Shown here: positions 4,120 through 64,000 of the stretch, piece by piece
How the letters are laid out: each line of letters begins with the position of its first letter
Numbering within the stretch: position 1 is the first letter of the stretch
NCBI GenBank assembly: GCA_027315405.1
Contig: DAHUYB010000068.1
Location: 13,391 to 77,390 of the forward strand
Origin: Gammaproteobacteria bacterium
GTDB taxonomy: Bacteria; Pseudomonadota; Gammaproteobacteria; Natronospirales; REEB76
DNA: 64,000 nt
Direction of reading: 5' to 3'
Made by a program: the position numbers and the translations under genes
The notes under the pieces: model-generated
The model's database searches: none
Told to the model about the DNA's origin: nothing
Seen by the model: only the letters and a program-made list of their open reading frames with translations

Positions 4120-5742
4120 ATGAAATCCGCCCGCACGCCGGACACCCGAATAGCTTCCACCGTTTCCGAGCCCCGCGATATTCATGCGCAGCGCATCCTG
4201 ATTGTTGATTTTGGTTCCCAGTGGACGCAATTGATCGCACGCCGCGTACGCGAGATCGGCGTGTTCTGCGAAATCCGTTCGCCGGAAATAAGCGCGCAGG
4301 CCATCCGTGAATTCGCCCCACGCGGCGTGATTCTGTCGGGCGGGCCGGAGTCGGTAGTGGGTCAGGCCACCCCCAAGACGCCACCCGCAGTTTTCGACCT
4401 GGGAGTGCCGGTGCTGGGCATCTGCTATGGCATGCAGGATATGGCCGCGCAACTCGGCGGTAAGGTAAGCGGCGGTGCACACCGAGAATTCGGGGTTGAG
4501 CCAATGACGGTGACCGCGGCGTCCTCACTGCTGGACGGCCTTGCTGACAACCAGGATACCCAGGGCCATGCGCTGCTGGAAGTGATGATGAACCATGGCG
4601 ATGCGGTGATCGGGTTGCCGGCGGGGTTCATCTCGATTGGCGCATCGCAGGATATCTCCTGCGCGGCCATGGCGGATGAGGCGCGGCGTTTCTATGGCGT
4701 GCAGTTCCACCCGGAGGTCACCCAGACAATTCAGGGCGGCAGGATACTCTCGCGTTTCCTGCTGGATATCTGCGGTTGTGCGGCTGTGTGGAATCCCACC
4801 CGCATTATCGAAGATGCCATCCGCAGGGTGCGTGAACAGGTCGGCACCGGCAAGGTGCTGCTGGGACTGTCCGGCGGGGTGGATTCATCCGTCGTGGCGG
4901 CGCTCTTGCATAGCACCATCGGCGACCAGTTGACCTGCGTATTTGTGGACACGGGACTGCTGCGCCTGCACGAGGGCGATCAGGTCATGGAGACTTTCGC
5001 GCGTCATATGGGCGTGCGGGTTCTGCGTGTGGACGCAGAGCCGCGGTTCATGAGAGCGCTCACCGGCATTACCGATCCTGAACAGAAACGCAAAACCATC
5101 GGCAAACTGTTCATTGAGGTATTTGAGGAGCAAGCCGCCAAACTAAAGGATGTGCAGTGGCTGGCCCAGGGTACTATTTATCCCGACGTTATCGAGTCAG
5201 CCGCCGCCAGCAGCAAAGCGCATGTGATCAAGTCCCATCACAACGTGGGTGGCCTGCCGGCAGCTATGAACCTCAAGCTGGTAGAGCCGCTCAAGGAACT
5301 CTTCAAGGACGAAGTGCGCAGGATCGGTGTCCAGTTGGGCCTGCCCCGAGAGATGGTGAGCCGCCATCCGTTCCCGGGGCCGGGTCTGGGGGTGCGCATC
5401 CTGGGAGAGGTCAAGAAGGAGTATGCGGACTTGCTGCGCAGTGCCGACGCTATATATATGGAGGAGTTGCGCAACTCCGGGCTATATGAGCAGGTCAGCC
5501 AGGCGTTTGCCGTGTTCCTGCCGGTGCGTTCCGTGGGGGTCATGGGCGACGGTCGCCGTTATGACTACGTGGTGGCCCTGCGCGCGGTGGAGACCGTGGA
5601 TTTCATGTCGGCGCGCTGGGCACGCCTTCCCTATGATTTCCTCGACCGGGTGTCCCGGCGCATCGTGAACGAGGTGGCCGGCATTTCGCGGGTGGTGTAT
5701 GACATCAGCGGCAAGCCGCCGGCCACCATCGAGTGGGAATAA
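4120..5742 (+). CDS. guaA: GMP synthase (glutamine-hydrolysing)
   Basis: GATase domain ([28 protein letters not shown]), ATP-PPase P-loop SGGVDSS and a C-terminus ending PPATIEWE. The N-terminus is about 15 aa longer than usual, so the start is somewhat uncertain. Confidence 0.92.
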
Positions 5743-5755
5743 TGAAAGTGGTGCC

Positions 5756-6304
<549 letters not shown>

Positions 6305-6418
6305 GCCAGCTATAGCTGCCTGCGGGTGTGGGCTAAAATAATCGGCTCAACGCCCAGCCAGGGAAGACGAGGCGGGTCAGCTTGCCATGGAGGGCGCGTT
6401 GCGTATGAAGAGCTTTTT

Positions 6419-6510
6419 GGAGAGGTACCGAAGCGGTCACAACGGCACCGACTCGAAATCGGTTGGGGGTTAAATGCCCCACGTGGGTTCGAATCCCACC
6501 CTCTCCGCCA
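6419..6510 (+). tRNA. tRNA-Ser (anticodon CGA), class II with long variable arm, encoded CCA
   Basis: Hand-folded. Acceptor GGAGAGG/CCTCTCC, 3-bp D stem CCG/CGG, anticodon stem ACCGA/TCGGT with loop CT-CGA-AA, long variable arm, T arm GTGGG-TTCGAAT-CCCAC, discriminator G plus CCA. Confidence 0.9.
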
Positions 6511-6556
6511 TTTATTCCACTACACTTGATATAGTCTGTTCACCTGGAATTCAAGC

Positions 6557-6895
6557 ATGACCGCTCGTCATATATATAAAGTGATTTTCATGAACCAGGG
6601 CAAGATCTACGAGGTCTATGCCCGCAAGGTGAGTCAGGATGGTTTCTGGGGATTCATCGAGATAGAACAGTTGGTGTTTGGCGAGCGTTCCAGCGTGGTG
6701 CTGGATCCCGGCGAAGAGAAGCTCAAGGATGAATTTGCCGGCGTGAAGCGCACGTATATTCCCATGCATGCAGTGATACGCATCGACGAGGTGGCTCACG
6801 AAGGTGCTGCCAAGATCATCGCCCTGGAGGGCGCTTCCAATGTGACGCCATTCCCGATGCCCATGTATACACCCGGCAGTACCCACAAAAAATGA
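6557..6895 (+). CDS. DUF1820-like small conserved protein
   Basis: 112-aa ORF. IYKVIFMNQGKIYEVYARKVSQDGFWGFIEIEQLVFGE matches my recollection of the DUF1820 family pattern. Confidence 0.65.
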   Translation: MTARHIYKVIFMNQGKIYEVYARKVSQDGFWGFIEIEQLVFGERSSVVLDPGEEKLKDEFAGVKRTYIPMHAVIRIDEVAHEGAAKIIALEGASNVTPFPMPMYTPGSTHKK

Positions 6896-6935
6896 AATAT
6901 TCGGTGGTCGGGCCTGAGCCCGTGACTCTCTGAAC

Positions 6936-7706
6936 ATGCGCTTCGCCCTGCTGGGCAGCGGCAGCCGCGGCAATGCCACGCTGGTGCAGTCCGGCCGCAC
7001 CTGCGTGATGGTGGATTGCGGCTTTTCCGCGACTGAAACCACAGCGCGACTTGCACGGCTGCAAATTGCTCCCGAAGATGTTTCGGCTATCCTCATCACC
7101 CACGAACATGCAGATCATGTCAATGGCGCAGCCAGGTTCGCCGGCCATTATGGAATACCGATCCGCTGCACGCCGGGTACGCTGGCAGGTTGCGCGAAAC
7201 TCGGCGTCGAAGCACTCGAGACCATTGACCCGCAGCTGGAGTTTCAGTTGGACGATCTTATGGTCACACCCTTGACGGTACCGCATGATGCGCGCGAGCC
7301 GACGCAATTTGTTTTTTCCGATGGCCGTCACCGATTGGGTATTTTGACTGATACGGGCAGTATCACGGGCCATATCCGGCGGCTGCTGGATGGCTGCGAC
7401 GCACTGATCCTCGAATGTAACCACGACAGTGCTCTGCTGGAGAACGGCCCTTATCCGGCACAGCTCAAATCACGGGTCGGCGGGCCCTTGGGGCATCTCA
7501 GCAACACGCAGGCAGCGGGATTATTGACGGATTTGGAGTGCGGAGGGCTGCAGCACCTGGTGGCGGCGCACTTGAGCGAAAAGAACAATACACCCGCATT
7601 GGTGCGTGAGGCGCTTGCGAGGGCCATGAACTGTGAGCATGACTGGATACAGCTGGCCACGCAGGATGCAGTCTTGGACTGGCGCGAATTGCTGACAGGC
7701 GGTTGA
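6936..7706 (+). CDS. MBL-fold metallo-hydrolase
   Basis: 256 aa. Begins MRFALLGSGSRGNA, then VMVDCGFS and the metallo-beta-lactamase motif ILITHEHADHVNGA. Confidence 0.8.
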   Translation: MRFALLGSGSRGNATLVQSGRTCVMVDCGFSATETTARLARLQIAPEDVSAILITHEHADHVNGAARFAGHYGIPIRCTPGTLAGCAKLGVEALETIDPQLEFQLDDLMVTPLTVPHDAREPTQFVFSDGRHRLGILTDTGSITGHIRRLLDGCDALILECNHDSALLENGPYPAQLKSRVGGPLGHLSNTQAAGLLTDLECGGLQHLVAAHLSEKNNTPALVREALARAMNCEHDWIQLATQDAVLDWRELLTGG

Positions 7707-7923
7707 ACCAACCTGGTTATTCCGATCGATGCAGGTGGCCTACGTTTGCAGGGTGTCTAACAGGTTGAAAAAATGGAGAAATCGGGAAACCACGATTTCC
7801 GTTTGTAATGCTGAAAAGGTCAAAACGATCTTCAATATTTTGGAGAACGTGTGACTGGAGGGTGTGGCTACCTTCCGGTAAAATGTCCGTCTGATTACGC
7901 TCCCTTTTCCGCAAGGACCAAGC

Positions 7924-10900
7924 ATGTTGCAGTTCCGTGGTGGCCCGGCGTTCTCCGAGTTCCGCATCCAGAAACTGCTCGATAATCTGCACACGCTGAT
8001 CCCGAGGGTTTCCGGCCTGAGCGCGGAATTCAGCTATTTCGTGGATTTGGCCGGTGTCCTCAGTATCGGCGAACAGCGCATCCTCAAAGAATTGCTGGCC
8101 GAAGACCAGCCTCCGGCAACTCAAACACCGGCCGGGTTATTGTTGTTGTGTGTGCCGCGTTTTGGCACGATTTCACCCTGGGCCAGCAAGGCCACCGACA
8201 TTGCTCACAACTGCGGTTTGGGCAAAATCCGCCGTATCGAGCGCGGCATTGCTTTCCACCTGACCCACACCGGCGCACCGCCAAATCGCGATGCCTTGAC
8301 GCGTGCCGCCCCCGTGCTGCATGACCGCATGACCCAGATATTACTAAGCGATGCCGATGAGGCGGCCAAACTCTTCGACCAGGCAGCGCCGGCGCCAATC
8401 CAGAGTGTGGATATTCTCAAGGGCGGCCGTCGGGCACTGGTCAAGGCCAACCAGGAATACGGTTTTGCGCTTTCCGATGACGAAATAAACTATCTGATTG
8501 ATAATTTCAAGAAGCTCAAGCGCAACCCAACGGACGCGGAACTCATGATGTTCGCCCAGACGAATTCCGAGCATTGCCGCCACAAGATTTTCCGTGGCGA
8601 CTGGATCATAGATGGAGAACCACAGGCCATTTCACCGTTTGACCTGATTCGTCGGACTCACGAACACAACCCCCAGGGGGTGTTATCCGCTTACCGCGAC
8701 AACGCATCCGTAATCCAGGGTTACAAAGGCAGCCGCTTCTTTCCGCGCCCGTTGGACAAGCTCTATGCACGTCATGAGGAGCCCATCCACATCCTTATGA
8801 AAGTCGAGACCCACAACCATCCAAGCGCGATTTCGCCGTTCCCCGGCGCCGCCACCGGGGCCGGCGGTGAAATCCGCGACGAGGCAGCGACCGGGCGCGG
8901 AGCAAAACCCAAAGCCGGCCTCACGGGGTTTTCCGTATCCAATCTTCACATTCCGGGATTCGAACAACCCTGGGAGCGGGAATACGGCAAACCCGCGCGT
9001 ATTGCCTCTGCTTTGGACATCATGCTCGAGGGGCCCATCGGTGCGGCTGCGTTCAATAATGAATTCGGCCGGCCGGCCCTCAACGGCTATTTCCGCACCT
9101 ACGAAATGCGGGTGAATGGGGCTGCGCGTGGCTACCACAAGCCCATCATGATTGCCGGCGGTCTGGGAAATATCCGCGCGTTGCATGTTGAGAAAAAGGT
9201 ACTACCCGCGGGCACCAAGGTGATTGTGTTGGGTGGACCCGCCATGATGATTGGTCTGGGCGGCGGAGCCGCCTCCAGCATGGCCAGCGGCGCCAGCGTC
9301 GAGGATCTGGATTTTGCCTCGGTGCAACGCGGTAATCCGGAGATCCAGCGGCGCGCCCAGGAAGTAATTGATGCCTGTTGGGCGTTGGGGGAAGCCAATC
9401 CCATCCTCTCGGTTCATGACGTCGGTGCGGGCGGGCTGTCGAATGCGGTACCCGAAATCCTGGATACGAGCCGGCGCGGCGGCCTGCTGGAACTCAGGAG
9501 CATACCCAACGACGAACCGGGAATGTCGCCGATGGATATCTGGTGCAATGAGGCCCAAGAGCGTTTTGTATTGGCGGTGGCGCCTGCACAGCTCATGGAA
9601 TTCGAACGTATCTGCAAGCGCGAGCGCTGCCCATTTGCCGTCATTGGCGAAGTCACCGGTGAGCGCATGCTGGTGGTGAAGGATTCGCACTTCGATACCC
9701 AACCCGTGGATGTTAGTATGCAGGTCTTATTGGGCAAACCGCCAAAGATGCTGCGAGATGTGCAGCGCATCAAGCCGGTGCCCAATCGCTTCGATACCAG
9801 CAAACTTGATTTGCAGGATGCGGCCCTGCGGGTGTTGCGTCTGCCGGCGGTGGCGGACAAGAGTTTCCTCGTGACTATCGGTGACCGCAGCGTCGGCGGT
9901 CTTGTATGCCGCGACCAGATGGTGGGTCCATGGCAGGTACCGGTCAGTGATCTGGCGGTTACCGCGGCGAGTTATGACGGCTACCATGGCGAGGCCATGG
10001 CCATGGGCGAACGCACTTCTTTGGCAGTGATCAATGCGCCGGCTTCGGGCCGTATGGCGGTGGCGGAAGCCCTCACCAACATCGCCGCCGCCGGTATCGG
10101 CGAGCTGGCACAGGTGCGGTTGTCGGCCAACTGGATGGCGGCTTGCGGACACCCTGGTGAGGACGCGGCACTTTACGATACGGTAAAAGCCGTAAGCGAA
10201 CTGTGCGTGGCCTTGAATATCGCCATCCCGGTGGGCAAGGATTCCCTGTCAATGAAAACCGTATGGCAGCAGGAAGGCGCAACCCGCACGATGGTGGCGC
10301 CTCTGTCACTCATCGTATCCGCGTTTGCGCCGGTAGAGGATGTGCGTCGCACGCTTACGCCGCAATTGCGCCTGGATAAGGGTAATACCGCGCTGCTACT
10401 GATTGATCTGGGCGGCGGCCGCAACCGCTTAGGGGGATCCTGTCTGGCGCAAGTGTTTGGCGGGGCCGGCGAAATCACTCCGGATATAAACAGCGCGGCG
10501 GAACTGGGCGGTTTTTTCGCGGCCATACAGGAATTGAATGCCGCCGAAAGGCTGCTCGCCTATCATGACCGTTCTGATGGCGGCCTGTTCGTGAGTCTGT
10601 GCGAAATGGCGTTTGCATCCCATTGTGGCATTGCAGCGCAACTGGATGAGATTGGAGACGACGTCTTTGCAGCGCTGTTTACCGAGGAGGCCGGTGCGGT
10701 CATCCAGGTACATGAAGAAGATGTGCCTTTGGTGCAGCGGATATTCGCAAGCCATGGATTGTTGAATGTGCCATTTCTGGGTATACCACGTGATGATGAC
10801 CGTATCGCATTCAGTAGCGGCGGGCAGCTGGTACTTGATGGTAGGCGCACTGAATTTCAAAGCGCCTGGAGCGAAACCAGCTTGCATATGCAACGCTTGC

Positions 10901-50874: not shown

Positions 50875-52197
50875 ATGTCAGACGGAACCTCCATGAACGC
50901 CCCTGCCAAGCTCGGTAAGTTCGTCATCACCCGGGAGCTGGGGCGCGGCGCCACCGGTACCGTCTATCTGTGTCACGATTCATTCCTGGGCCGGGACGTG
51001 GCCATCAAGCTCTACAACTTCGACGGCGATGCTACCGAAAAGGCAACCCGTACACGGCGCAAGTTGTTCTTCAACGAGGCCTATCTCGTTGGCAAGATGA
51101 ACCATCCCAATATTCTGCCCATCTTCGATGCCGGTGAGGATGCGGATCATTGCTACGTGGTGATGGAGTACGTGCGTGCCGCACAACCACTCACGATCTT
51201 CTGTCGCGCCGACAACCTGCTGCCGGTGCGCAAGGTGGTGGAAGTCGTATTCAAGTGCGCCAAGGCCTTGGATTACGCCCATCGCAAGGGACTGGTGCAT
51301 CGTGATATCAAGCCCGGCAACATTCTCATGACCGCAGAAGGCGATGTGCGCATCGTGGATTTTGGCGTGGCCCACATGGCAGGCAACGAGGAAGGGCAAC
51401 TCAAGGGACTGGTAGGTTCGCCCAGCTACATGGCATCCGAACAGATGCGCCAGCAACCCTCCACCGTGCAGACCGACCTGTATTCCCTGGGCGTGGTGAT
51501 GTACGAGCTGCTGACCGGCAAGCGGCCGTTCTATGGGGATAATCTTTCACGTCTCGTGCATCAAATCGTCTATGCCACTCCGCCACCGGTACATCGCCTG
51601 CGCCCCGATGTACCCGGAGTACTGGAAGAGATCGTGTACAAGGCCTTGGAAAAGGATCCGACGCGGCGTTACCGCAGCGGCCTGGAGTTTGCCACCGATT
51701 TGACGCGCGCGGTACGCACCCTCGACCAGCTGTCCGAGGAAATGGCGGAACAGGAACGCTTCAATATCCTGCGCAGACTGCGCTTCTTCGAGGATTTCAG
51801 TTATCCGGAGATTTACGAAGTGCTGCATGCCAGCCGCTGGCAAAGTTACGGCCCAGGCGAGCATATCGTGGTGGAAGGTGAGCTTGACGATTGTTACATC
51901 ATCGTCGTATTAGGCGACGCCGAGGTGCGCCGCGGCGACAGGAGCATCGGTATTTTGAGAGAGGGGGATTGTTTCGGTGAGGCCCCCTATCTGGAACAGG
52001 GCCGCAGTCTCGCTGGCATCACGGCCCAAACCACCATGAATGTGCTGCGCGTGAATTCAACGCTCATTGGTCAGGTGTCGCTGCAATGCCAGTTGCGCTT
52101 CCACAAGATGTTTCTCAAAACGCTCATTGAGCGGCTCACCCGTGGTGAGCGCAAAACGGACGCTATGGTGGAATCCACCGGCTCTGCCGAATCCTGA
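50875..52197 (+). CDS. Hanks-type Ser/Thr protein kinase fused to a C-terminal cyclic-nucleotide-binding-like domain
   Basis: Kinase motifs GRGATGTVY, VAIK, HRDIKPGNIL, DFGVA and SPSYMASE. The C-terminal approximately 120 aa (RFFEDFS..GEHIVVEGE..DCFGEAPYLEQGRS) resembles a cNMP-binding beta-barrel. Confidence 0.85.
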   Translation: MSDGTSMNAPAKLGKFVITRELGRGATGTVYLCHDSFLGRDVAIKLYNFDGDATEKATRTRRKLFFNEAYLVGKMNHPNILPIFDAGEDADHCYVVMEYVRAAQPLTIFCRADNLLPVRKVVEVVFKCAKALDYAHRKGLVHRDIKPGNILMTAEGDVRIVDFGVAHMAGNEEGQLKGLVGSPSYMASEQMRQQPSTVQTDLYSLGVVMYELLTGKRPFYGDNLSRLVHQIVYATPPPVHRLRPDVPGVLEEIVYKALEKDPTRRYRSGLEFATDLTRAVRTLDQLSEEMAEQERFNILRRLRFFEDFSYPEIYEVLHASRWQSYGPGEHIVVEGELDDCYIIVVLGDAEVRRGDRSIGILREGDCFGEAPYLEQGRSLAGITAQTTMNVLRVNSTLIGQVSLQCQLRFHKMFLKTLIERLTRGERKTDAMVESTGSAES

Positions 52198-52203
52198 GGC
52201 GGC

Positions 52204-53064
52204 TTACTTGGGCGCGGCTGCCGCGTTTCTGGGTTCCGCGTCTTTGTCCCGTTCCACCATGGCATAGGCCGAGTGGTTATGGATGGATTCGAAATTCTCG
52301 GATTCCACGCTGTAGGCACGGATACGCTCATCGGTATTCAGTTTCATGGCAATGTCGCGCACCATGTCCTCGACGAACTTGGGATTGTCATAAGCGCGCT
52401 CGGTAACATACTTCTCATCGGGACGCTTCAACAAGCCAAACAGTTCCGAGGAAGCTTCCCGTTCCACTACGTCAATCAATTCCTCCAGCCAGATAAAGCC
52501 GCGGGTCTTGCAGTTCACTGTCACGTGAGAACGCTGGTTGTGTGCGCCGTAATCGGAAATTTCCTTGGAGCAGGGGCATAGGCTGGTCACCGGGATCACT
52601 ATCCTGATGCGCAGGCAGTTCTGATTATCCTTGCGTTCGCCTATGAAGGTGACGTCGTAGTCGAGCAGGCTTTGCACTCCGGATACCGGTGCTTTCTTGG
52701 TGATGAAATAGGGGAAGCGCATCTCGATGTGGCCGGAACGGGCACCCAGGCGCTCGCTCATCTCGGTCAGCATTTCCTTGAATGATTCCACGGTAATTTC
52801 GCGCTCATAGTGGTTGAGTATTTCCACGAAGCGCGACATGTGTGTGCCCTTGAAGTTATGCGGCAGGTCCACGTACATATTGAAGGTCGCAACCGTGTGC
52901 TGTTCACCGCCGGAACGGTCCCGCACCCGGATAGGATGGCGAATGTCCTTGATGCCAACCTTGTTGATGGGTATGCGGCGGGTATCGGCGCTCGATTGCA
53001 CATCGGCGATGGGCAGAAGTTCAGCCTCGGCCGGGTGGCTGGGTGTCATGTTGAAGTCCTCCAT
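52204..53064 (-). CDS. folE2: GTP cyclohydrolase IB (FolE2/MptA family)
   Basis: [51 protein letters not shown]. The ATG at 53064 is preceded by GGGAGG. The longer 53289 start would overlap dxs. Confidence 0.85.
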
Positions 53065-53212
53065 CTGACGTACCTCCCAGGGCAGGTGCGGCGACCGGCG
53101 GATAAAAGGCGCGGGAACCGGGATTTTCCACTGGCGGCCGCAGATCGCGGCGCACGGACTGTCAATACGGATCGTTAGGCTAGCATAATCGGAGTCTGGA
53201 GGGGTGATCCGT

Positions 53213-55105
53213 TCACCGGCCGGCGGCGCGTGGCTGGCGCTGCGGCGCATCCAGCCACTTTTCCAGCGCGCGGCGAATACCTGCCGCATCCAGGCCCACT
53301 TCCTTGAGACATTCTTCCCGCGAGCCGTGTTCCACGATTACATCCGGGATACCGAGATTAAGCACGGGCGTGCGCAGGCCGTGGGACATCAGCAGTTCAT
53401 TGACGGCACTGCCAGCGCCGCCGGCAATGGCATTGTCTTCGATGGTGACCAGGGTGTTATGTGAGGCCGCCAGCTCCAGGATCAGGGTTGCATCCAGCGG
53501 TTTGACAAAGCGCATGTTGACCAGCGTCAGGTTCAAGGTTTCGGCGCTGGCGTGGGCTGCCTCCACCATGGCACCGAACGCCAGCAGCGCGGTGCCGTTG
53601 CCGCGACGCTGGATCTCTGCCTTGCCGATGGGCAGTGTATGCATCTGCTTTACGATCCGCACACCCGGTCCGCGGCCGCGCGGGTAGCGCACCGCCGCCG
53701 GCTGGTTGAGCAGCATGCCCGTATATAGCATCTGCCGGCATTCGTTCTCGTCCGCCGGAGCCATGAGCACCAGATTCGGCAGACAGCGCATGTAGGTGAA
53801 ATCATAACTACCCGCGTGCGTGGGACCATCGGGTCCCACCAGGCCGGCGCGGTCAATGGCGAACAATACCGGCAGATTCTGCAGCGCCACGTCATGCACC
53901 AACTGATCGTAAGCACGCTGCAGGAAGGTGGAATAGATGGCCACCACGGGTTTCAGACCGTCGCAGGCGAGGCCCGCTGCCAGAGTAACCGCATGCTGCT
54001 CGGCGATACCCACATCGAAATAGCGATCCGGAAAGCGTTGCGCAAATTCAACGAGACCGGAGCCTTCCCGCATGGCGGGAGTGACGGCCACCAGCCGTGG
54101 TTCCTGTTCCGCCATGTCGCACAGCCAGTGACCGAAGACTTCCGAGTAATTGGGGCTGACGGCGGCTTTCTGAGGAATTTCGCCGGTGGCCACATTGAAT
54201 GCCGACGGGCCATGCCATTTGATGGGATCCTGTTCCGCCGGTTCGTAACCCTTGCCCTTGCGCGTGACCACGTGCAGAAACTGCGGCCCTTTGAGGGCGC
54301 GCATGTTGCGCAGGGTTTTCACCAGTGTCGCCAGGTCATGACCGTCCACCGGGCCGATGTAATTGAATCCCAGTTCCTCGAACAGCGTGCCGGGGGCCAC
54401 CATGCCCTTCATGAATTCCTCGGAACGCCGCGCCAGCTCGCGTACCGGCGGCATGATGGACAGGGCTTTTTTGCCGCCCTCGCGGATGTGCGAATACACG
54501 CGGCCGGAAAGCACTTTCGCGAAATAATTCGAGAGTGCGCCCACGTTGCCGGAGATGGACATGTCATTGTCGTTGAGCACCACCAGCAGATTGGCATCCA
54601 GGCTGCCGGCATGATTGAGCGCCTCGAAGGCCATGCCCGCAGTCATGGCGCCGTCACCCACGAGCGCCACCACGTGACGATCTTCACCTTTGTGTTTGGC
54701 TGCCAGCGCCATACCGAGAGCCGCGCTGATGCTGGTGCTGGAATGGCCCACGCCGAAGGTGTCGTATTCGCTTTCCGCGCGTTTTGGAAACGGCGCTAGA
54801 CCTTTCCATTTGCGGATTGTATCGAGGCGATCGCGGCGTCCGGTGAGCACCTTGTGCGGGTAGGCCTGATGACCCACATCCCATACCAGCCGGTCATAGG
54901 GTGTGTTGAACACATAGTGCAGCGCCAGCGTGAGTTCCACCACACCGAGACCGGCGGCGAAATGCCCACCCACGTTGCTGACGGTCTCAATCAAAAACGC
55001 GCGCAACTCATCCGCCACCTTTTTCAGGTCGGCTTCCGGAAGCGCGCGCAGATCCTCAGGCGAATTGATGCGCGCCAACAGGGGAAAAGCGGAAAGATCA
55101 GTCAT
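53213..55105 (-). CDS. dxs: 1-deoxy-D-xylulose-5-phosphate synthase
   Basis: 630 aa. [36 protein letters not shown] and the ThDP motif [15 protein letters not shown]. Confidence 0.95.
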
Positions 55106-55160
55106 GGCGGCCCATTGCGTGGTAGCCCCATTATCCGAGCTTTATGCCCAGGCCTTCAAC

Positions 55161-56051
55161 TCAATTGCTGCGCGTGACAATATATTCCGAGAGCCAGGCC
55201 AGTGGTTCGGCCGCCTCGCCGAAAGGCGCGAGTGCGGTGACCGCAGCGTGATGGAGATCGCGTGCGCGCCGGCGGGATTCTTCCAGACCCAGTACGCTCG
55301 GATAGGTCGGTTTGTTAAGCGCGGCGTCAGCGCCGCTGTGCTTCCCCAGAGCCGTGGTTTCGCCCTCCACGTCCAGGATGTCATCGCGGATCTGGAAGGC
55401 GAGTCCGGCGCATTTTGCGTAACGGTCCAGGGCGGTGCGCTTCTCAACCGCCAGTCCGGGCAGGCTCTGGGCCGCCAGCAACACGCTGGCGCGGATAAGG
55501 GCGCCGGTCTTGTGGATATGCATAAGTTCCAGCTCTGCGAGACCCAAGTTCTTGCCGGCGGCCGCCAGATCCATGGCCTGGCCGCCGGCCATGCCGGTGG
55601 AGCCACTGGCCACCGCCACGCTGCGGATCATCTCAACGCGCGCCGCCGGCAATACCCTCATGCTCGGGTCCTCGGCCAGAATCAGGAACGCCAGCACCTG
55701 CAGGGCATCGCCGGCCAGAATAGCGGTGGCTACGTCGAAGGCCTTGTGGCAGGTAGGCCGGCCGCGTCGCAGGTCGTCGTTGTCCATGGCCGGCAGGTCG
55801 TCGTGAATCAGGGAATAGGTATGGATCATTTCCACCGCCGCTGCCGGGCCGTCCAGCTGTTCGGCGGGCACGCCCAGGGTCTCGCCGGCGGCGTAAATCA
55901 GCAGCGGCCGCAGGCGTTTGCCGCCGCCCAGCACCGCGTAGCGCATGGCCGCATGCAGCCGCAGCGGTGGCTTGTGCGCGGCTGGCAGCCAACGGTCCAG
56001 AACTTTTTCAATGCGCCTTGAATACTCCGGCACCCGTTCCCGGAAGGGCAT
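55161..56051 (-). CDS. ispA: (2E,6E)-farnesyl diphosphate synthase
   Basis: First DDxxD motif LIHDDLPAMDNDDLRRG and second motif FQIRDDILD. Confidence 0.92.
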   Translation of the reverse strand: MPFRERVPEYSRRIEKVLDRWLPAAHKPPLRLHAAMRYAVLGGGKRLRPLLIYAAGETLGVPAEQLDGPAAAVEMIHTYSLIHDDLPAMDNDDLRRGRPTCHKAFDVATAILAGDALQVLAFLILAEDPSMRVLPAARVEMIRSVAVASGSTGMAGGQAMDLAAAGKNLGLAELELMHIHKTGALIRASVLLAAQSLPGLAVEKRTALDRYAKCAGLAFQIRDDILDVEGETTALGKHSGADAALNKPTYPSVLGLEESRRRARDLHHAAVTALAPFGEAAEPLAWLSEYIVTRSN

Positions 56052-56054
56052 GAA

Positions 56055-56300
56055 TTATTCGTCCTCGGTATCCAGGGCGGTCAGTTTCTGTTGGCCATCC
56101 TTCTCAATCAGCATTTCCACCTTGAGTTCCGCCTGTTTCAGCGCGCTTTGGCACAAACGCGTGAGCGTGATGCCGCGTTCGAAATGTTTCAGGGCGGTAT
56201 CTAGGCTGAGGTCGCCCTTTTCCAGAGTGGCGACGATTTTCTCCAGTTCTTTGAGGGCGGCTTCAAAGTCCGGGGTAGCTGATTTGGCAGGTTTGACCAC
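56055..56300 (-). CDS. xseB: Exodeoxyribonuclease VII small subunit
   Basis: FEAALKELEKIVATLEKGDLSLDTALKHFERGITLTRLCQ. The GTG at 56300 sits 6 nt after AGGAA and gives 81 aa. Conserved xseB-ispA-dxs order. Confidence 0.85.
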   Translation of the reverse strand: MVKPAKSATPDFEAALKELEKIVATLEKGDLSLDTALKHFERGITLTRLCQSALKQAELKVEMLIEKDGQQKLTALDTEDE

Positions 56301-56369
56301 GGCGTATTCCTGAGTGAGGCCGGGCAAGTTACACGTCACAACTGACAGGGTCAAACATGATTTGGCTTG

Positions 56370-56398
56370 TTGACATCTCCCGGCAGCGGGGCTAAATT
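56370..56398 (+). promoter_or_regulatory. Sigma70-like promoter upstream of the rubrerythrin cassette
   Basis: A perfect TTGACA (56370-56375), a 17-nt spacer, then TAAATT (56393-56398). Confidence 0.45.
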
Positions 56399-56408
56399 GG
56401 AGTTATTT

Positions 56409-56423
56409 TTAGACTTAGTCTAA
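56409..56423. promoter_or_regulatory. Perfect 7-1-7 palindrome TTAGACT-T-AGTCTAA (candidate Fur-family-type operator)
   Basis: It begins 11 nt downstream of the -10 hexamer, overlapping the expected transcription start, and lies about 60 nt upstream of the rubrerythrin ATG. Confidence 0.4.
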
Positions 56424-56482
56424 GCCTGTTGGGTTGAACCCGGCAGGACCGGTCTTCCCTCAGTAATTATCCGGAGGAAATC

Positions 56483-56908
56483 ATGAGCAAGCAATTGAAA
56501 GGCAGCAAAACCGAGGAAAACCTCAAATACGCGTTTGCGGGTGAGTCTCAGGCCAACCGCCGTTACCTGTATTTCGCCGCCAAGGCGGATGTAGAAGGCT
56601 TTAACGACGTGTCCGCCGTGTTCCGCTCCACCGCGGAAGGCGAGACCGGCCATGCCCACGGCCACCTGGAATATCTCGAAGCGGTCGGCGACCCGGCCAC
56701 CGGCCTGCCCATCGGCAGCACCGACAAGAACCTCAAGGCCGCCATTGCCGGCGAGACCCATGAGTACACTGACATGTACCCGGGTATGGCCAAGGCCGCC
56801 CGCGAGGAAGGCTTCAACGAAATCGCCGATTGGTTCGAAACCCTGGCCAAAGCAGAGCGTTCCCACGCTAACCGTTTCACCAAGGCCCTCGATACCCTCG
56901 GTAAATAA
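56483..56908 (+). CDS. Rubrerythrin-family diiron protein (no rubredoxin domain)
   Basis: 141 aa. [54 protein letters not shown] and [11 protein letters not shown] form the two ExxH diiron half-sites. Confidence 0.88.
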
Positions 56909-56922
56909 TGTGTTGTCTTTGA

Positions 56923-56954
56923 GCGGGGCACGCGTCAGGCGTCCCCGCGCTTTT
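56923..56954 (+). terminator. Weak GC hairpin plus TTTT after rubrerythrin (possible partial terminator)
   Basis: GCGGGG (56923-56928), a 14-nt loop, CCCCGC (56943-56948), gc, then TTTT (56951-56954). Confidence 0.3.
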
Positions 56955-56988
56955 ACTGATCCCGTTCCTCGGGAAAAGGGGGTTGCAC

Positions 56989-58323
56989 ATGCCCGCTGAA
57001 GGCGGCCTCAAAGCGCCCAACAGGCATCCGCTCGATTGGCAGAGCCCGGATTTCTGGAACCAGGAGTCGCTGCTTACGGAGATGGAGCGCGTCTTCGATA
57101 TCTGCCACGGCTGCCGGCGCTGCTTTAACCTGTGCAATTCATTTCCCACGCTCTTCGATGCCATTGATGGCACTGACAGCGGTGAGTTGGCCTCGGTGGA
57201 CAAGAAAGTCTATTGGGAGGTGACGGATCACTGCTACCTCTGCGATCTGTGCTTCATGACCAAGTGCCCCTATGTGCCGCCGCACCCCTGGAACGTGGAT
57301 TTCCCGCACTTGATGCTGCGCGCCAAGGCCCTCAAGTTCAAAAGCAAAGGCGCGGGCTTCCGCGACAAACTGCTTTCCTCACCGGAAAAACTTGGCAAGT
57401 TCGCCGGTATTCCCATCGTGGCGCAGAGCGTGAACGCCCTGAACCGCAACCGTAGCGTCCGCAAGCTGCTGGACAAGACTTTCGGCATCGATGCGGATGC
57501 CGTGGTGCCGGAATTCCACAGTGATACGGCGCGCAAACAACTCAAGCGTCACACACCGCTGGCGAGCGTGGCGGAACCGGCGGAGGGCACCCATGGCAAG
57601 GTCGTTGTATTCCTGACCTGCTACGGCAACCGTAACCAGCCGGAGTTGGTGACAGATTTGGTGGCGGTGCTGGAACATAACGGCATTCCCACGCGCCTAA
57701 CCACCCAGGAGCGTTGCTGCGGTATGCCCAAATTGGAGCTGGGGGATTTGGATGCCATCCGGGAAAATAAGCAGGAAAACATCCCAATGCTGGCGCAGCT
57801 GGTGGACGAAGGCTGGGACATCGTGGCGCCGATTCCGTCCTGTGTGCTCATGTTCAAACAGGAACTGCCGCTGATGTTTCCCGGAGATGCGCAGGTGAGC
57901 AAGGTCAGAGACAATATCTACGATCCGTTCGAGTACCTGATGCTGCGTCACCGGGCCGGCAAGCTGAAAACCGATTTCAAGAAATCGCTCGGCAAGGTTT
58001 CTTATCACGTGCCCTGCCACCAGCGCGTGCAGAACATCGGCTTGAAGACCAAGCAATTGCTGGAACTGGTGCCGGGTACGCGGGTGGAAGCCATCGAACG
58101 CTGCTCCGGACACAACGGCACGTATGCGGTGAAAAGAGAGTTTCACAAAGTCTCCATGAAAATCGGCCGGCCGGTCATGGAGCGGGTGGCGGCTTCCGGC
58201 TGCGATCATTATTTCAGTGATTGTCCGATGGCGGCGGAACAGATCCAGAACGGCCTGCCGGACCGGCGTGAACCGGAATCACCTCTGCAACTGTTGTGCA
58301 TGGCCTACGGATTATCGGACTGA
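56989..58323 (+). CDS. Iron-sulfur oxidoreductase with two 4Fe-4S ferredoxin motifs and two CCG domains (HdrD/GlpC/LutA-like)
   Basis: CHGCRRCFNLCNSFP and CYLCDLCFMTKCPYVP. Cys-rich CCG-type regions are LTCYGN...CCGMP and VPCH...CSGHNG. The ATG at 56989 follows GGGGG. Confidence 0.85.
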   Translation: MPAEGGLKAPNRHPLDWQSPDFWNQESLLTEMERVFDICHGCRRCFNLCNSFPTLFDAIDGTDSGELASVDKKVYWEVTDHCYLCDLCFMTKCPYVPPHPWNVDFPHLMLRAKALKFKSKGAGFRDKLLSSPEKLGKFAGIPIVAQSVNALNRNRSVRKLLDKTFGIDADAVVPEFHSDTARKQLKRHTPLASVAEPAEGTHGKVVVFLTCYGNRNQPELVTDLVAVLEHNGIPTRLTTQERCCGMPKLELGDLDAIRENKQENIPMLAQLVDEGWDIVAPIPSCVLMFKQELPLMFPGDAQVSKVRDNIYDPFEYLMLRHRAGKLKTDFKKSLGKVSYHVPCHQRVQNIGLKTKQLLELVPGTRVEAIERCSGHNGTYAVKREFHKVSMKIGRPVMERVAASGCDHYFSDCPMAAEQIQNGLPDRREPESPLQLLCMAYGLSD

Positions 58324-58412
58324 ACCATATGACGGTGCTTTCCCGCAGGACGGGCAAGAGTCACGACTTTAACCTCAATATTTGTATTTATTGTTTGTAT
58401 TAAGGAACAATC

Positions 58413-58703
58413 ATGGCAAGTGAAGGCTATCATGAACCGATCGAGGAGCTGTCCGACGAAATCCGCGACTTCCACCGGGCAGTAGTGTCGTTGATGGAAG
58501 AACTGGAAGCGGTTGACTGGTATCACCAGCGGGTGGCCGCCTGCAAGGACAAGGAATTGGCGGCCATTCTGGCGCATAACCGCGACGAGGAAATGGAGCA
58601 TGCCTCCATGGTGATCGAATGGATCCGCCGCCACAATTCGCGTTTTGACCACCAGCTGCGGGACTACCTGTTCAAGGACGGTCCCATCACCGATCGCAAA
58701 TAA
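58413..58703 (+). CDS. Encapsulated-ferritin-like (EncFtn-type) ferroxidase homolog lacking a cargo-loading C-terminal extension
   Basis: 96 aa. HEPIEELSDEIRDFHRAVVSLMEELEAVDWYHQRVAACKDKELAAILAHNRDEEMEHASMVIEWIRR closely parallels the Rhodospirillum rubrum EncFtn core as I remember it, with both metal-site motifs (EELEAVDWY and EEMEH). It ends ...GPITDRK. Confidence 0.78.
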   Translation: MASEGYHEPIEELSDEIRDFHRAVVSLMEELEAVDWYHQRVAACKDKELAAILAHNRDEEMEHASMVIEWIRRHNSRFDHQLRDYLFKDGPITDRK

Positions 58704-58717
58704 GGCCCGCCGGCAGC

Positions 58718-59302
58718 ATGCACAAGCTTGAACGCAAGGATCTCTGGAGTCTTGAAGACTACGCGCAGAAGCGCGCGGTTTTTCGCGAGCAGGTGATGGC
58801 GCATAAGAAAAACCGCGATTTGCAGATCGGCCCGCACGTGCATTTGCTGTTCGAGGATCGCCTGAGCATGCAATACCAGGTGCAGGAGATGCTGCGGGCC
58901 GAGCGCATCTTCGAGGCGGAAAGCATCCAGGACGAACTTAATACCTACAACGCACTCATTCCGGATGGTAGGAATTGGAAAGCCACCATGCTTATCGGAT
59001 TCGAGGACATCGCGGAGCGCCAGCAGGCATTGATGAAGCTCATCGGCATCGAGGACAAAACCTGGGTACAGGTGGCAGGCCACGATCCGGTGTACGCCAT
59101 CGCCGACGAGGATATGGCACGCGAGAATGCCGACAAGACCTCAGCCGTGCATTTCCTGCGATTCGAGCTGACGCTCGTCATGATCAGAGCCCTGCAGGCG
59201 GGCGCTGACCTGAATGCCGGTGTGCGTCACGCCAATTACAATCACAGTGTTACGCCGGTGGCGGATGCCTTACGCGCGGCGCTGCTCGTCGACCTGGACT
59301 GA
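58718..59302 (+). CDS. DUF3501-family protein
   Basis: 194 aa. DLWSLEDYAQKRAVFREQVMAHKKNR..HLLFEDRLSMQYQVQEMLRAERIFE..YNALIPDGRNWKATMLI matches the DUF3501 pattern as recalled. Confidence 0.78.
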   Translation: MHKLERKDLWSLEDYAQKRAVFREQVMAHKKNRDLQIGPHVHLLFEDRLSMQYQVQEMLRAERIFEAESIQDELNTYNALIPDGRNWKATMLIGFEDIAERQQALMKLIGIEDKTWVQVAGHDPVYAIADEDMARENADKTSAVHFLRFELTLVMIRALQAGADLNAGVRHANYNHSVTPVADALRAALLVDLD

Positions 59303-59371
59303 GGAATTTGCTGTAAGCGCACGGCGGAATCGGGTTAGAATTCACGGCGCGCGAACCGCAGGCTTTGCTAA

Positions 59372-61282
<1,911 letters not shown>

Positions 61283-61583
61283 GCAGCCAGATGGGCATTA
61301 CTAACGATGCCGGTTACCCTTCCAGCCCCACGGGACTCCCCGACATCTTGAAATATAGGCGGATTTATCAAAAATCGCGGTATCCGGCTGTGGTTAGGCA
61401 GCGGGCGTCATAAATAGTTCCGCGGTACCCGCAATCGTGGTACCAATCATGATTACACTGAGCGCCTGGCTTGCAAGCATTCGGGGCAATGGCCTATATT
61501 TCCCCACCTGGGATTCATCAGGCATGCATCGAAACGACTCTCGCATTGACGTTTCGGCCCAAAATTTTACCGCTTAGGATGAA

Positions 61584-62126
61584 ATGAACACCTTTGTGCG
61601 ATTAACTAAGGCCGGTTACTACGCCGACTTCGTTTTCTACCCAATATTTTTGCTGACGCTGGCAGGCGTGGCGATAGCCCGCGATACGCCGGCGGCCTGG
61701 CTGCTCTGGGTTGTGCTGTGCCTGACCGGGGTTGCGATCTGGACCTTGCTTGAATACGGCCTGCATCGTGTCGCATTCCATCACATTGTATTGATTCGCA
61801 AGTTGCATGATCTGCACCACGCCATGCCGACCGCCAAAATCGGCACCCCCACCTGGGTGACCGGGGCCCTGATCTGCGGGTTTTTGCTGTTACCGCTGTG
61901 GCGGGAGGCAGGTTTTAATCTGGCGAGTGGTCTTACTTGCGGATTGGCGGCAGGGTATCTCTGGTATGTCACGGTGCATCACGCCACCCATAACTGGCGC
62001 ACGCATCCGAATTCTTACCTGCATCGGGCAAAACGCCGCCATGCAACGCATCATCACTCCCAACAGCCCTGTAATTTCGGCGTCACTACGGTGTTTTGGG
62101 ACCGCATCTTCCATACCGTGCGCTAG
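61584..62126 (+). CDS. Fatty-acid hydroxylase / sterol desaturase-superfamily membrane protein
   Basis: 180 aa with about 4 TM segments and histidine boxes HRVAFHH, HDLHH, HHATHNW and HATHHH. Confidence 0.7.
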   Translation: MNTFVRLTKAGYYADFVFYPIFLLTLAGVAIARDTPAAWLLWVVLCLTGVAIWTLLEYGLHRVAFHHIVLIRKLHDLHHAMPTAKIGTPTWVTGALICGFLLLPLWREAGFNLASGLTCGLAAGYLWYVTVHHATHNWRTHPNSYLHRAKRRHATHHHSQQPCNFGVTTVFWDRIFHTVR

Positions 62127-62314
62127 CGATAGAGATACACGGCATGATTTCTCCTAGAATCTCGTGCTGGTCAGATCCGAATCTTTAGTCTGATACGACC
62201 GGCGGATTCGTCCACAAGAAATGGTGACTGATTCTGTTTGCTCCCCTAGTAAGCGAATGTGCCAGAGGCACAAGTGTCTGAAAATATGGCGTACTTTTAG
62301 AAAGCAGACTCGAT

Positions 62315-62554
62315 TCAGGATTCTTTAATCTGAATCCGCTTCATACGGCTGGTGACGCCGCTTTTGATGGAAACCGCGGATTTGGGGCACGCGAAGCGCT
62401 GTGCAACCAGCGCGATCAGTTCTTCATTGGCTTTGCCGTCTATCGGCGGTGATTTCAGCTGTGCCAGCCACACGCCGTCAGCGTCCGGTTCATCCAGAAC
62501 GCTGACGCGCGTCTTGGGTTTGATCCTGACCCGGATGGTTTTCATAGTGCTCAT
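62315..62554 (-). CDS. DUF167 (YggU/UPF0235) family protein
   Basis: 79 aa containing LKSPPIDGKANEELIALVAQRF..KSAVSIKSGVTSRMKRIQI. Confidence 0.8.
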   Translation of the reverse strand: MSTMKTIRVRIKPKTRVSVLDEPDADGVWLAQLKSPPIDGKANEELIALVAQRFACPKSAVSIKSGVTSRMKRIQIKES

Positions 62555-62746
62555 GCTGCGCTCAAATTAACCTGCGATCGCGGCTAGCGCTTTAAAAAGG
62601 CAGAACTTTTGAAACATGGCTGACGATGATGGCAACCTGGCCTATTCCCATGATTTTGTTCTTCTCAATCTGATGAAATGGGTACTGCGCGCTTATCCCT
62701 TGTGCGATATAACGGACTTTGAGATCGGCGGTACACGGCGACCGGC

Positions 62747-62785
62747 GGCGCTTTGCGGGCAGTAGAAGCCTGCCCGCAAAGCGCC
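62747..62785. other. Perfect 16-bp stem hairpin
   Basis: GGCGCTTTGCGGGCAG (62747-62762), loop tagaagc, CTGCCCGCAAAGCGCC (62770-62785). It lies just downstream of the minus-strand membrane-protein gene, with no flanking T tract on either strand. Confidence 0.4.
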
Positions 62786-62801
62786 TGTGGCTGACGAAGT
62801 C

Positions 62802-63203
62802 TCAGACCGCGCGTGGCCGAGAGCTGGCATTCCCGCCCCGGGGAGTCAGCAGGGCCAGTACGATGGCGACCACGAACAGTGCCGGTACGTCTCCCAGCAG
62901 ATGACCATGATGCTCGGGATACATGAAGGCCTGAACGGTCATGATTCCGCCGTGTACTACGCTCGACCAGACCGTGAACCAGATCAGGCTGAGGTGATCA
63001 AGCGGATTCCGGGCGGCGATGATCAGGAACACGCCGAGTGTCGCGTAAATTCCGACGATCATCAGCGGGTAGTCCGAATGGCCCGTGTGCCACGACCAGC
63101 CGGATGGCCAGATCATCATGAGCGGATAAATGCCGGCGATGAATATTATTCCCACCAGTACCAGTGCGATTTTTAGATACTTGAGGTGGTGAGCTTCGTT
63201 CAT
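62802..63203 (-). CDS. Hypothetical integral membrane protein (about 4 TM, His-rich loops)
   Basis: The ATG at 63203 is preceded by AGGAGAGAACC. MNEAHHLKYLKIALVLVGIIFIAGIYPLMMIWP..., with HTGHS and PEHHGH loops. Confidence 0.6.
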   Translation of the reverse strand: MNEAHHLKYLKIALVLVGIIFIAGIYPLMMIWPSGWSWHTGHSDYPLMIVGIYATLGVFLIIAARNPLDHLSLIWFTVWSSVVHGGIMTVQAFMYPEHHGHLLGDVPALFVVAIVLALLTPRGGNASSRPRAV

Positions 63204-63282
63204 GGTTCTCTCCTTTAAATTGTGATCTATCGTCTGTTGATTTAACTGTGGCACCAGATTTTAACCAGGTTCAATGAAAACG

Positions 63283-63555
63283 TTACTCAGCGGTGGTTGG
63301 GCCAATGACAGAGATTACCTGAGAGATGCGATTGGCTGGGAAGCCGCCTTGTTGGTCATTTTGACGAACCATTTGTTCATTGGGGGCGATGTATACGCAG
63401 TAGATATTGTCGCCGGTGACAAAACTCTCTAGCTACTGGATCTGTGGACCCATCTTGCTGAGGACGCCACAGGATTTCTGTGAGATGGCCTTGAGTTCGG
63501 GGGCCGAGAGTTTTCCGGCGCCTGGAAGCTCTCGTTCAATGACGTATTTTGGCAT
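63283..63555 (-). pseudogene. DUF4242-family gene interrupted by one in-frame TAG (absent from the ORF track)
   Basis: The minus-strand translation is MPKYVIERELPGAGKLSAPELKAISQKSCGVLSKMGPQIQ-TAG-LESFVTGDNIYCVYIAPNEQMVRQNDQQGGFPANRISQVISVIGPTTAE-TAA. The TAG (63433-63435) sits where the family normally has Trp (TGG). Confidence 0.75.
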
Positions 63556-63658
63556 GACGCTTCTCCTTCCATGGGTTAGGGAAACGCAAGTTTACGCCTC
63601 GGGCCAGGCAAGGGCGAGAGGGTCTCGCTCAGTTATGTGCTTGGGCAGCGGTTCGGGG

Positions 63659-63985
63659 TTACAGCCGCCGTGCATAGAGACCCGCAAGCACGAGCCCGAT
63701 CAACAGCGGCAGTGCAAAACCAGCCAGGTGTATGAGCCAGATAACAAAGTTATCGCTCGCCGACTTGCTGTACGGCCACATTATCGCCACAGCCGCATAC
63801 ACCAGGCTCGCCAATATGATGGCAGCACCCGCGAACCGGTTGATTGAATACCACACACGATCATCCGCGAGGGTTTTTCGTATCCGGAATCCGTAGAACC
63901 GGTTGCGCGGGATGAGCCCCAGGGCGAGGGGTATAGCGGCCAGAAACAGCAGCACCGCGGGAATGGCGAAAGGCTGCGAAAACAC
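63659..63985 (-). CDS. SdpI/YhfL-family membrane protein
   Basis: 108 aa. IPRNRFYGFRIRKTLADDRVWYSINRFAG flanked by TM segments. GTG start close to the window edge. Confidence 0.62.
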   Translation of the reverse strand: MFSQPFAIPAVLLFLAAIPLALGLIPRNRFYGFRIRKTLADDRVWYSINRFAGAAIILASLVYAAVAIMWPYSKSASDNFVIWLIHLAGFALPLLIGLVLAGLYARRL

Positions 63986-64000
63986 AGGGTTCGGCCTGCG

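Follow-up and report, generated by a model that had tools for sequence, protein, structure and literature searches.

What does an EncFtn-like ferritin-like gene do inside a rubrerythrin operon, and does such an arrangement represent a new system or a variant of a known one? This question is raised by a 64-kb stretch of DNA (64,000 nucleotides, hereafter the window) from contig DAHUYB010000068.1 of a gammaproteobacterial metagenome-assembled genome (MAG), in which genes for a rubrerythrin (RBR), an Fe-S oxidoreductase (RFO), a short ferritin-like protein (s-FLP) and a DUF3501 protein follow one another behind a single predicted promoter. A preliminary description, made from the letters of the sequence, had treated the four genes as a candidate uncharacterised redox or iron module. 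We found instead that the window holds a lineage-restricted variant of a known, biochemically uncharacterised system. What is new is the linkage of an s-FLP gene to the rubrerythrin cluster and the presence of an ICE-like operator outside Alphaproteobacteria, which we regard as two modest leads.

The four genes are co-directional (+ strand) and tightly spaced, with xseB, ispA, dxs and folE2 running divergently upstream (- strand) and parE located downstream of the DUF3501 gene. All four open reading frames (ORFs) of the preliminary description were recovered in their places and their Pfam and NCBIfam families confirmed, and the divergent - strand genes xseB-ispA-dxs were also found as described. 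The first gene (56483-56908, + strand) encodes an aerobic-type RBR of 141 aa, in which PF02915 was the sole Pfam match (1e-30) and was covered over the full profile; the protein contains no rubredoxin domain, in agreement with the earlier reading. Its closest solved structures were the Burkholderia pseudomallei rubrerythrin (BpRbr, 4DI0, 7e-78) and sulerythrin (1J30, 1e-51), while the classical rubrerythrin 1B71 was matched at 4e-30 only.

The second gene starts 81 nt past the rubrerythrin stop and encodes a GlpC/HdrD-like Fe-S protein of 444 aa, RFO (56989-58323, + strand, ATG at 56989; PF02754 CCG, 2e-11). An alternative TTG start at 56983 is possible, and the NCBI record corresponds to the 444-aa form. 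Across 49 homologues we found invariant cysteines in two CxxCxxCxxxC-type motifs (C41/44/47/51 and C84/87/90/95) and in one clear CCG domain (C213, C245-C246 and C287). The second CCG domain was not called by Pfam and is degenerate, with C345, C374 in a 'CSG' motif, C414, His346 and His377, all of them also invariant in the 49 homologues. The proposed architecture of two [4Fe-4S] clusters plus two CCG domains was thus borne out for both [4Fe-4S] motifs and for one CCG domain, and is approximate for the other because of its degeneracy. RFO resembles the CCG-domain subunits GlpC, HdrD and LutA in overall architecture and aligned end to end with the GlpC models, but its scores stayed under the cut-offs (229.7 bits against 278 for NF008369, and 153.4 against 279.9 in a second GlpC comparison). 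In addition, the neighbours of the RFO gene are the rubrerythrin and s-FLP genes and not glpA or glpB, nor are there hdr or lut partner genes; thus, we did not assign the protein to GlpC.

The last gene (58718-59302, + strand) encodes a 194-aa protein confirmed as DUF3501 (PF12007, 4e-69), with 3FJV as its solved homologue (1e-49). An AlphaFold2 model, computed from an input alignment without locus-derived rows, reached a pLDDT of 91 and had 3FJV as its sole match in the PDB (TM 0.95), so that the fold comparison gives no functional hint. Neither the DUF3501 protein nor the rubrerythrin of the window contains any cysteine.

Three of these four families have been described together before. The lineage of 'aerobic-type' rubrerythrins goes back to Cardenas, Quatrini and Holmes (2016), who found it to lack the rubredoxin domain and to be co-localised with DUF3501 and with the Fe-S oxidoreductase to which they gave the name RFO, and who reported the triple co-occurrence in 185 of 4461 genomes. 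The same study reported a DUF3501-RFO fusion in Nitrosomonas and, in Thermoproteales, DUF3501 accompanied by a ferritin-like diiron protein without RFO, and the three-gene system was subsequently traced into mitochondria (Gray et al., 2020). The RBR-RFO-DUF3501 genes of the window are this already described system: the rubrerythrin belongs to the sulerythrin/BpRbr lineage, DUF3501 is co-localised with it on the same strand and in one operon, and so is an RFO of the COG0247 type with CCG domain. The order RBR-RFO-DUF3501 and the two [4Fe-4S] motifs plus CCG domain of RFO are the same, and the setting between xseB-ispA-dxs and parE-parC is common to 15-21 other loci. The module is therefore not an unknown one: the trio was described and named in 2016, and the s-FLP class also has its place in the literature. 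The accompanying statement that the biochemistry had not been worked out remains accurate, given that a 2025 preprint on BpRbr still offers as a hypothesis that the electrons come from the operon partners in place of rubredoxin. The donor scheme is likewise a proposal in the 2016 and 2020 studies. The window differs from the published system in its EncFtn-like gene between RFO and DUF3501, an arrangement present in about 9% of clusters; published descriptions of the system do not name such a gene, and only an unnamed 'HYP' gene is drawn in a figure.

The EncFtn-like gene itself (58413-58703, + strand) encodes an s-FLP of 96 aa (PF22277, 1e-41). Its best solved match was 3K6C (NE0167 of Nitrosomonas europaea, 9e-40), an entry of 10 chains, ahead of the cargo proteins of R. 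rubrum and H. ochraceum. With the latter two it shares the two-helix domain at about 60% identity. All metal-, entry- and exit-site residues published for R. rubrum EncFtn are kept; for the metal site, E31, E32, E34, W38 and Y39 of that protein correspond to E29, E30, E32, W36 and Y37 of the window s-FLP, and H57, E61, E62, E64 and H65 to H55, E59, E60, E62 and H63. The ferroxidase-centre residues Glu32, Glu62 and His65 (R. rubrum numbering; E30, E60 and H63 in the window) were invariant in 24 homologues, and the intact metal site that had been claimed for this protein was thereby confirmed. One position sets it apart from the cargo proteins, namely Cys44 (motif ACKD, 58542-58544), which was invariant in 89 of 89 s-FLPs; the cargo protein of Acetoanaerobium and R. 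rubrum EncFtn both have a Ser there.

We did not find a C-terminal targeting peptide (such as SLGIGSLK or GLNIGKMK) on the window s-FLP, whose sequence ends in ...LFKDGPITDRK; the protein stops three residues past the aligned domain. In contrast, the EncFtn of an Acetoanaerobium locus (L164) carries a 25-residue tail with the ending ...GLNIGKMK, and the next gene there encodes a Linocin_M18 protein of 264 aa (7e-82). We used this Linocin_M18 protein, together with a Thermotoga maritima encapsulin sequence, as probes for a shell gene. The probes recovered the L164 positive control (8e-173, with a validation match at 1e-56) and, at E<=1, gave no match to a Linocin_M18-type encapsulin (PF04454) in any of the six reading frames of the 64-kb window, which is part of an 85-kb source contig, or of the 163 s-FLP- or DUF3501-anchored loci. 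Likewise, the recurrent neighbours of s-FLP genes, as scanned with Pfam in 142 flanking ORFs, included no encapsulin. The C-terminus as read and the validated probes thus agree with the earlier observation that targeting peptide and local shell gene are both absent.

These properties place the protein in a class that a 2024 review (PMC11202242) calls s-FLP. Its members are short ferritin-like proteins that crystallise as decamers, show no apparent targeting peptide and have no assigned role, and their tail of about 10 residues is left open in the review as a possible uncharacterised binding sequence. The window s-FLP shares with the class the length of about 95 aa, the ferroxidase-centre residues and ExxH motif, the short tail and the absence of an adjacent shell gene. 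It differs from most members, which are solitary, in being embedded in a rubrerythrin operon under the promoter and operator of the latter. Flp decamers are reported to oxidise iron and to be unable to store it without a shell; the window protein, unlike cargo EncFtn, would be unable to store the iron that it oxidises. We found no other literature on NE0167 than this review, and in the published encapsulin surveys that we found no link is made between s-FLPs and rubrerythrin clusters. The score of the window protein against TIGR04535 (130 bits, cut-off 125) is just over the threshold, which explains why relatives (e.g. P0275, P0276 and P0282) are deposited as 'encapsulin-associated ferritin-like protein'. 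That name is probably misleading for the s-FLP class, as no encapsulin was found near any of these proteins.

We examined the linkage between s-FLP and the rubrerythrin cluster from both sides. From the s-FLP side, a one-genome-per-species scan gave at least 595 relatives, and the best 80 loci were analysed; 7 of these 80 species-level loci (about 9%) were linked to the DUF3501 cluster. The full order RBR-RFO-s-FLP-DUF3501 was present in L004, L005, L006, L044 and L053 (Sedimenticola), and the same order was found in L001. The culturable Sedimenticola hydrogenitrophicus shares this order of four genes. In a Thiobacillus locus (L027) the s-FLP-DUF3501 pair lies at a contig edge, and in an uncultured Thiomargarita MAG (L035, 6263-9932) the pair has the reversed order DUF3501-s-FLP; its neighbours are grpE and the genes of a guanylate kinase and a HAD hydrolase, and the 8 kb to either side contain neither RBR nor RFO. 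The remaining 73 s-FLP loci were solitary. Clustering and Pfam scanning of the 142 flanking ORFs revealed no conserved neighbour of these solitary genes, as no family occurred in more than 3 loci, and the DUF3501 cluster was the only recurrent s-FLP neighbour.

From the DUF3501 side, 80 metagenomic loci (54-65% identity) were collected, 76 of which were informative. RBR-RFO-DUF3501 was the norm among them, and an s-FLP was present in 7 of the 76 (again about 9%). The s-FLP gene was located between RFO and DUF3501 in L090, L114, L128, L143 and L152. It stood immediately upstream of DUF3501 in L085, where the contig stops before any RFO gene, and about 0.9 kb downstream of RBR-RFO-DUF3501 in L096. 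The gene-neighbourhood co-occurrence suggested for all four families was therefore recovered for three of them, while the EncFtn-like gene joins in about 9% of cases in either direction, nearly always at the site between RFO and DUF3501, which makes it a recurrent accessory and not a core member. The L096 locus is a one-strand island (4138-8752) in which RBR-RFO-DUF3501 is followed by an AhpC-type peroxiredoxin gene (6820-7419), the s-FLP gene (7491-7778) and a gene for a thioredoxin-reductase-like flavoprotein (7796-8752).

If each genome has about one DUF3501 gene, chance alone should give fewer than 0.1 adjacencies among 80 loci, against the 7 observed. In neighbour-joining trees of both DUF3501 and s-FLP (drawn without support values) the linked cases were scattered, and the DUF3501 tree shows the s-FLP insertion point at 8 or more separate positions, beside different s-FLP lineages. 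For 9 of the 16 linked s-FLPs the nearest relative was a solitary s-FLP, a pattern better explained by repeated gain or loss than by a single event. A plasmid collection, which was also the source of the Burkholderia comparison locus and of the encapsulin positive control, contained 4 DUF3501 and 7 EncFtn matches on different replicons, too few for an assessment of co-occurrence.

The operon carries a predicted sigma-70-type promoter (56370-56398, + strand; TTGACA-17 nt-TAAATT), which was the sole + strand promoter-like site in 56000-59600. Its score of 10/12 is by itself not over shuffle expectation; the -35 element, the 17-nt spacer and a TAnAnT -10 element are kept upstream of rubrerythrin in the five related loci that retain the promoter (L001, L004, L005, L006 and L044). 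No convincing internal terminator was predicted within the operon. The RFO and s-FLP genes are separated by an 89-nt AT-rich spacer (58324-58412, + strand), in which TTTGTATT occurs two times as a direct repeat (at 58381-58388 and at 58394-58401) and for which neither a promoter nor a terminator was predicted on the + strand; in most other s-FLP-bearing loci the junction measures about 20-30 nt. In L001 and L053 the DUF3501 gene starts before the s-FLP gene ends.

At 10 nt downstream of the -10 element, and overlapping the predicted transcription start, we identified a 17-bp palindromic putative operator, TTTAGACTTAGTCTAAG (56408-56424), which resembles an ICE or Irr box and is assigned to neither strand. 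The palindrome has a single match in the window, with 0.03 expected by chance. Searching 1.64 Mb of related loci with up to 3 mismatches from TTTAGACTNAGTCTAAA gave 36 sites, 34 of which were located directly upstream of rubrerythrin; the latter come from 31 loci (e.g. L001 at 6044, L004 at 1198, L094 at 4082, L113 at 3586, L152 at 3589 and L162 at 45), several of which are labelled Gammaproteobacteria. Random 200-nt windows attained the operator-match score 0.4% of the time. Tandem double sites, 31-51 nt apart, were found in L095, L110 and L132.

The operator motif, TTTAGAC-N3-GTCTAAA, is one position per half-site off the published ICE consensus TTTAGAA-N3-TTCTAAA (2006 study). The window site itself, TTTAGAC-TTA-GTCTAAG, agrees with 11 of the 14 specified ICE bases, the consensus being alphaproteobacterial and the host gammaproteobacterial; exact ICE consensus sites were present at the equivalent place in L152. 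In the 2006 study, rubrerythrin-like genes were minimal members of the Irr regulon in some Alphaproteobacteria, and ICE was found nowhere else. Repression by Irr has been reported for bfr and for a rubrerythrin-like gene, in both cases through ICE boxes that overlap the transcription start, and the operator of the window lies in the same region. A literature search on the half-site strings gave nothing useful.

A candidate regulator of the operator was found in two related loci, in which a Fur-family gene is convergent to DUF3501 (L147, 6879-7322, - strand; L124, 1250-1768, - strand). Both proteins matched IrrA/Irr best (116-123 bits), ahead of PerR and Fur. The comparison with the Irr/ICE regulon thus has its differences: a gammaproteobacterial MAG as the host, no regulator gene in the window, and regulators in L124 and L147 that score below cut-off. 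The Burkholderia version of the system differs from the window operon in having no ICE-like operator. We also considered a shared regulon of solitary s-FLP genes and rejected it, because their upstream regions, when inspected and scanned, contained no palindrome, and the two sites not associated with rubrerythrin were more than 7 kb from an s-FLP gene.

Based on these comparisons of sequence and gene order, we favour a picture, with a probability of roughly 65%, in which the operon encodes a peroxidase system accompanied by a free s-FLP ferroxidase as an accessory and controlled by an Irr-like repressor. The diiron rubrerythrin would reduce H2O2 to water. Because it has no rubredoxin domain, electrons would arrive through RFO, passing over its two [4Fe-4S] clusters after its CCG domains had taken them from quinol or from a thiol, and DUF3501, which is fused to RFO in Nitrosomonas, may serve as a docking or adaptor subunit. 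The s-FLP would act as a soluble decamer beside the peroxidase and outside its electron chain, using O2 or H2O2 to oxidise free Fe(II) and thereby remove the second Fenton reactant. The operator would be occupied by an Irr-like repressor of the Fur family, with its gene outside the window, and be freed when iron or haem is replete or an oxidant is present. We counted in favour of a role in oxidative stress the position of the L096 s-FLP gene between those for the AhpC-type peroxiredoxin and the thioredoxin-reductase-like protein.

Several observations weigh against this picture. About 91% of the sampled clusters lack the s-FLP gene, and the Burkholderia chromids carry the three genes without it, that of B. 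multivorans also without the operator; nothing in the system therefore requires s-FLP. N. europaea, the source of NE0167, is not among the genomes listed with aerobic-type RBR, DUF3501 or RFO in the supplementary tables of PMC5114695, in which other Nitrosomonas and Nitrosospira are listed; this suggests that an s-FLP can exist alone, without the rubrerythrin system. No fusion of s-FLP to DUF3501 or RFO was found with a concatenated query or among the long hits of a representative search, the only fusions met being N-terminal over-calls and one EncFtn-encapsulin fusion. The long AT-rich spacer ahead of the window s-FLP could conceal a second promoter, and the trees behind the repeated placement have no support values. 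Finally, we found no Fur-family gene within the 64-kb window, and the Irr-like proteins of L124 and L147 are under the NCBIfam equivalog cut-offs (150-170 bits).

The position of the s-FLP gene between RFO and DUF3501, abutting or overlapping the DUF3501 start, would also fit an integral redox partner, either with diiron centres re-reduced by RFO/DUF3501 so that the s-FLP forms a second terminal peroxidase or oxidase, or as an iron donor or repair factor for rubrerythrin. The L035 pair with no RBR or RFO gene within 8 kb on either side, the pairing of DUF3501 with a ferritin-like diiron protein without RFO in L150, L157, L163 and Thermoproteales, and the invariant Cys44 (89 of 89 s-FLPs, Ser in cargo EncFtn), taken with the disulfide reductases within the RFO family, point the same way. 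We nevertheless consider such a partnership unlikely, since about 91% of s-FLP genes are solitary and have no conserved neighbour, the cluster-linked s-FLPs do not form a distinct sequence subgroup, no fusion proteins were found and the rubrerythrin system seems to be missing from N. europaea. It is quite improbable, too, that the operon serves mainly in iron handling, with two ferritin-like Fe(II) oxidisers, RFO as a ferric reductase that releases iron, and an iron-responsive regulator. The similarity of the operator to the ICE box of bfr/mbfA-type iron storage genes, the ferroxidase homology of s-FLP and a Pelagibacter rubrerythrin, responsive to iron limitation and listed in the literature as a putative ferroxidase, would be explained by it; however, the close relative sulerythrin is reported to be a peroxidase, BpRbr is reported to be induced by oxidative stress, the L096 cluster comes with AhpC and a TrxB-like gene, and neither of the two ferritin-like proteins forms a storage cage.

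Two further explanations concern the s-FLP only, and to both we give very little credence. The protein might be loaded in trans, via its short C-terminus, into an encapsulin whose gene lies in another part of the genome. The review that allows a tail of about 10 residues as a binding sequence leaves space for this, as do the TIGR04535 score just over the cut-off and a genome coverage of one 85-kb contig. It is made highly improbable by the ending ...GPITDRK, which has no targeting-peptide motif, by the absence of Linocin_M18-type genes from the 64-kb window and the 163 anchored loci in a search that recovered the L164 control, and by the lack of any encapsulin family among recurrent neighbours. 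Alternatively, the adjacency might be an accident of insertion with no functional meaning, for which the very varied contexts of s-FLP genes and the unusually long AT-rich spacer in the window could be cited. The recurrence of one insertion point at 8 or more separate positions of the DUF3501 tree and with different s-FLP lineages, and the 7 adjacencies observed among 80 loci where fewer than 0.1 were expected, leave this explanation with hardly any probability. Going beyond the peroxidase operon with a free accessory ferroxidase that we favour, the s-FLP class at large might consist of free diiron enzymes of peroxide or iron stress that work with, or are reduced by, RFO/DUF3501, with Cys44 as a redox handle and with Irr/ICE control extending well beyond Alphaproteobacteria; we offer this as a long shot.

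The aerobic-type rubrerythrin system is widespread, and neither its electron source nor the role of DUF3501 has been established, while for the s-FLP class a crystal structure has been available since 2009 but no role is known. The repeated, independent placement of s-FLP between RFO and DUF3501 provides a concrete pairing for biochemistry. It also argues against the automatic label 'encapsulin-associated', which is routinely given to this class of at least 595 species. The conserved ICE-like operator, in turn, predicts the signal (iron, haem or an oxidant) and the type of regulator, and hence the conditions under which a phenotype might be sought.

The genomic setting of the cluster is itself conserved. 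The arrangement folE2-dxs-ispA-xseB, rubrerythrin cluster and parE-parC (52204-61282 in the window) was recovered in L001, L088, L111, L115, L123, L133, L160 and others, and ParE adjoins the cluster in 21 and IspA in 15 of the metagenomic DUF3501 loci. The majority of these loci have no s-FLP, so that the gene appears as an insertion into a stable syntenic block. Rfam gave zero matches in 52000-64000. In L150, L157 and L163 the rubrerythrin gene was followed directly by DUF3501, with no RFO between them, a two-gene form as in Thermoproteales. Finally, a CNP1-like gene (PF08750) was located immediately downstream of DUF3501 in L092, L101 (1143-1712), L130, L136, L149 and L152, and was the only other recurrent non-housekeeping neighbour of the cluster.

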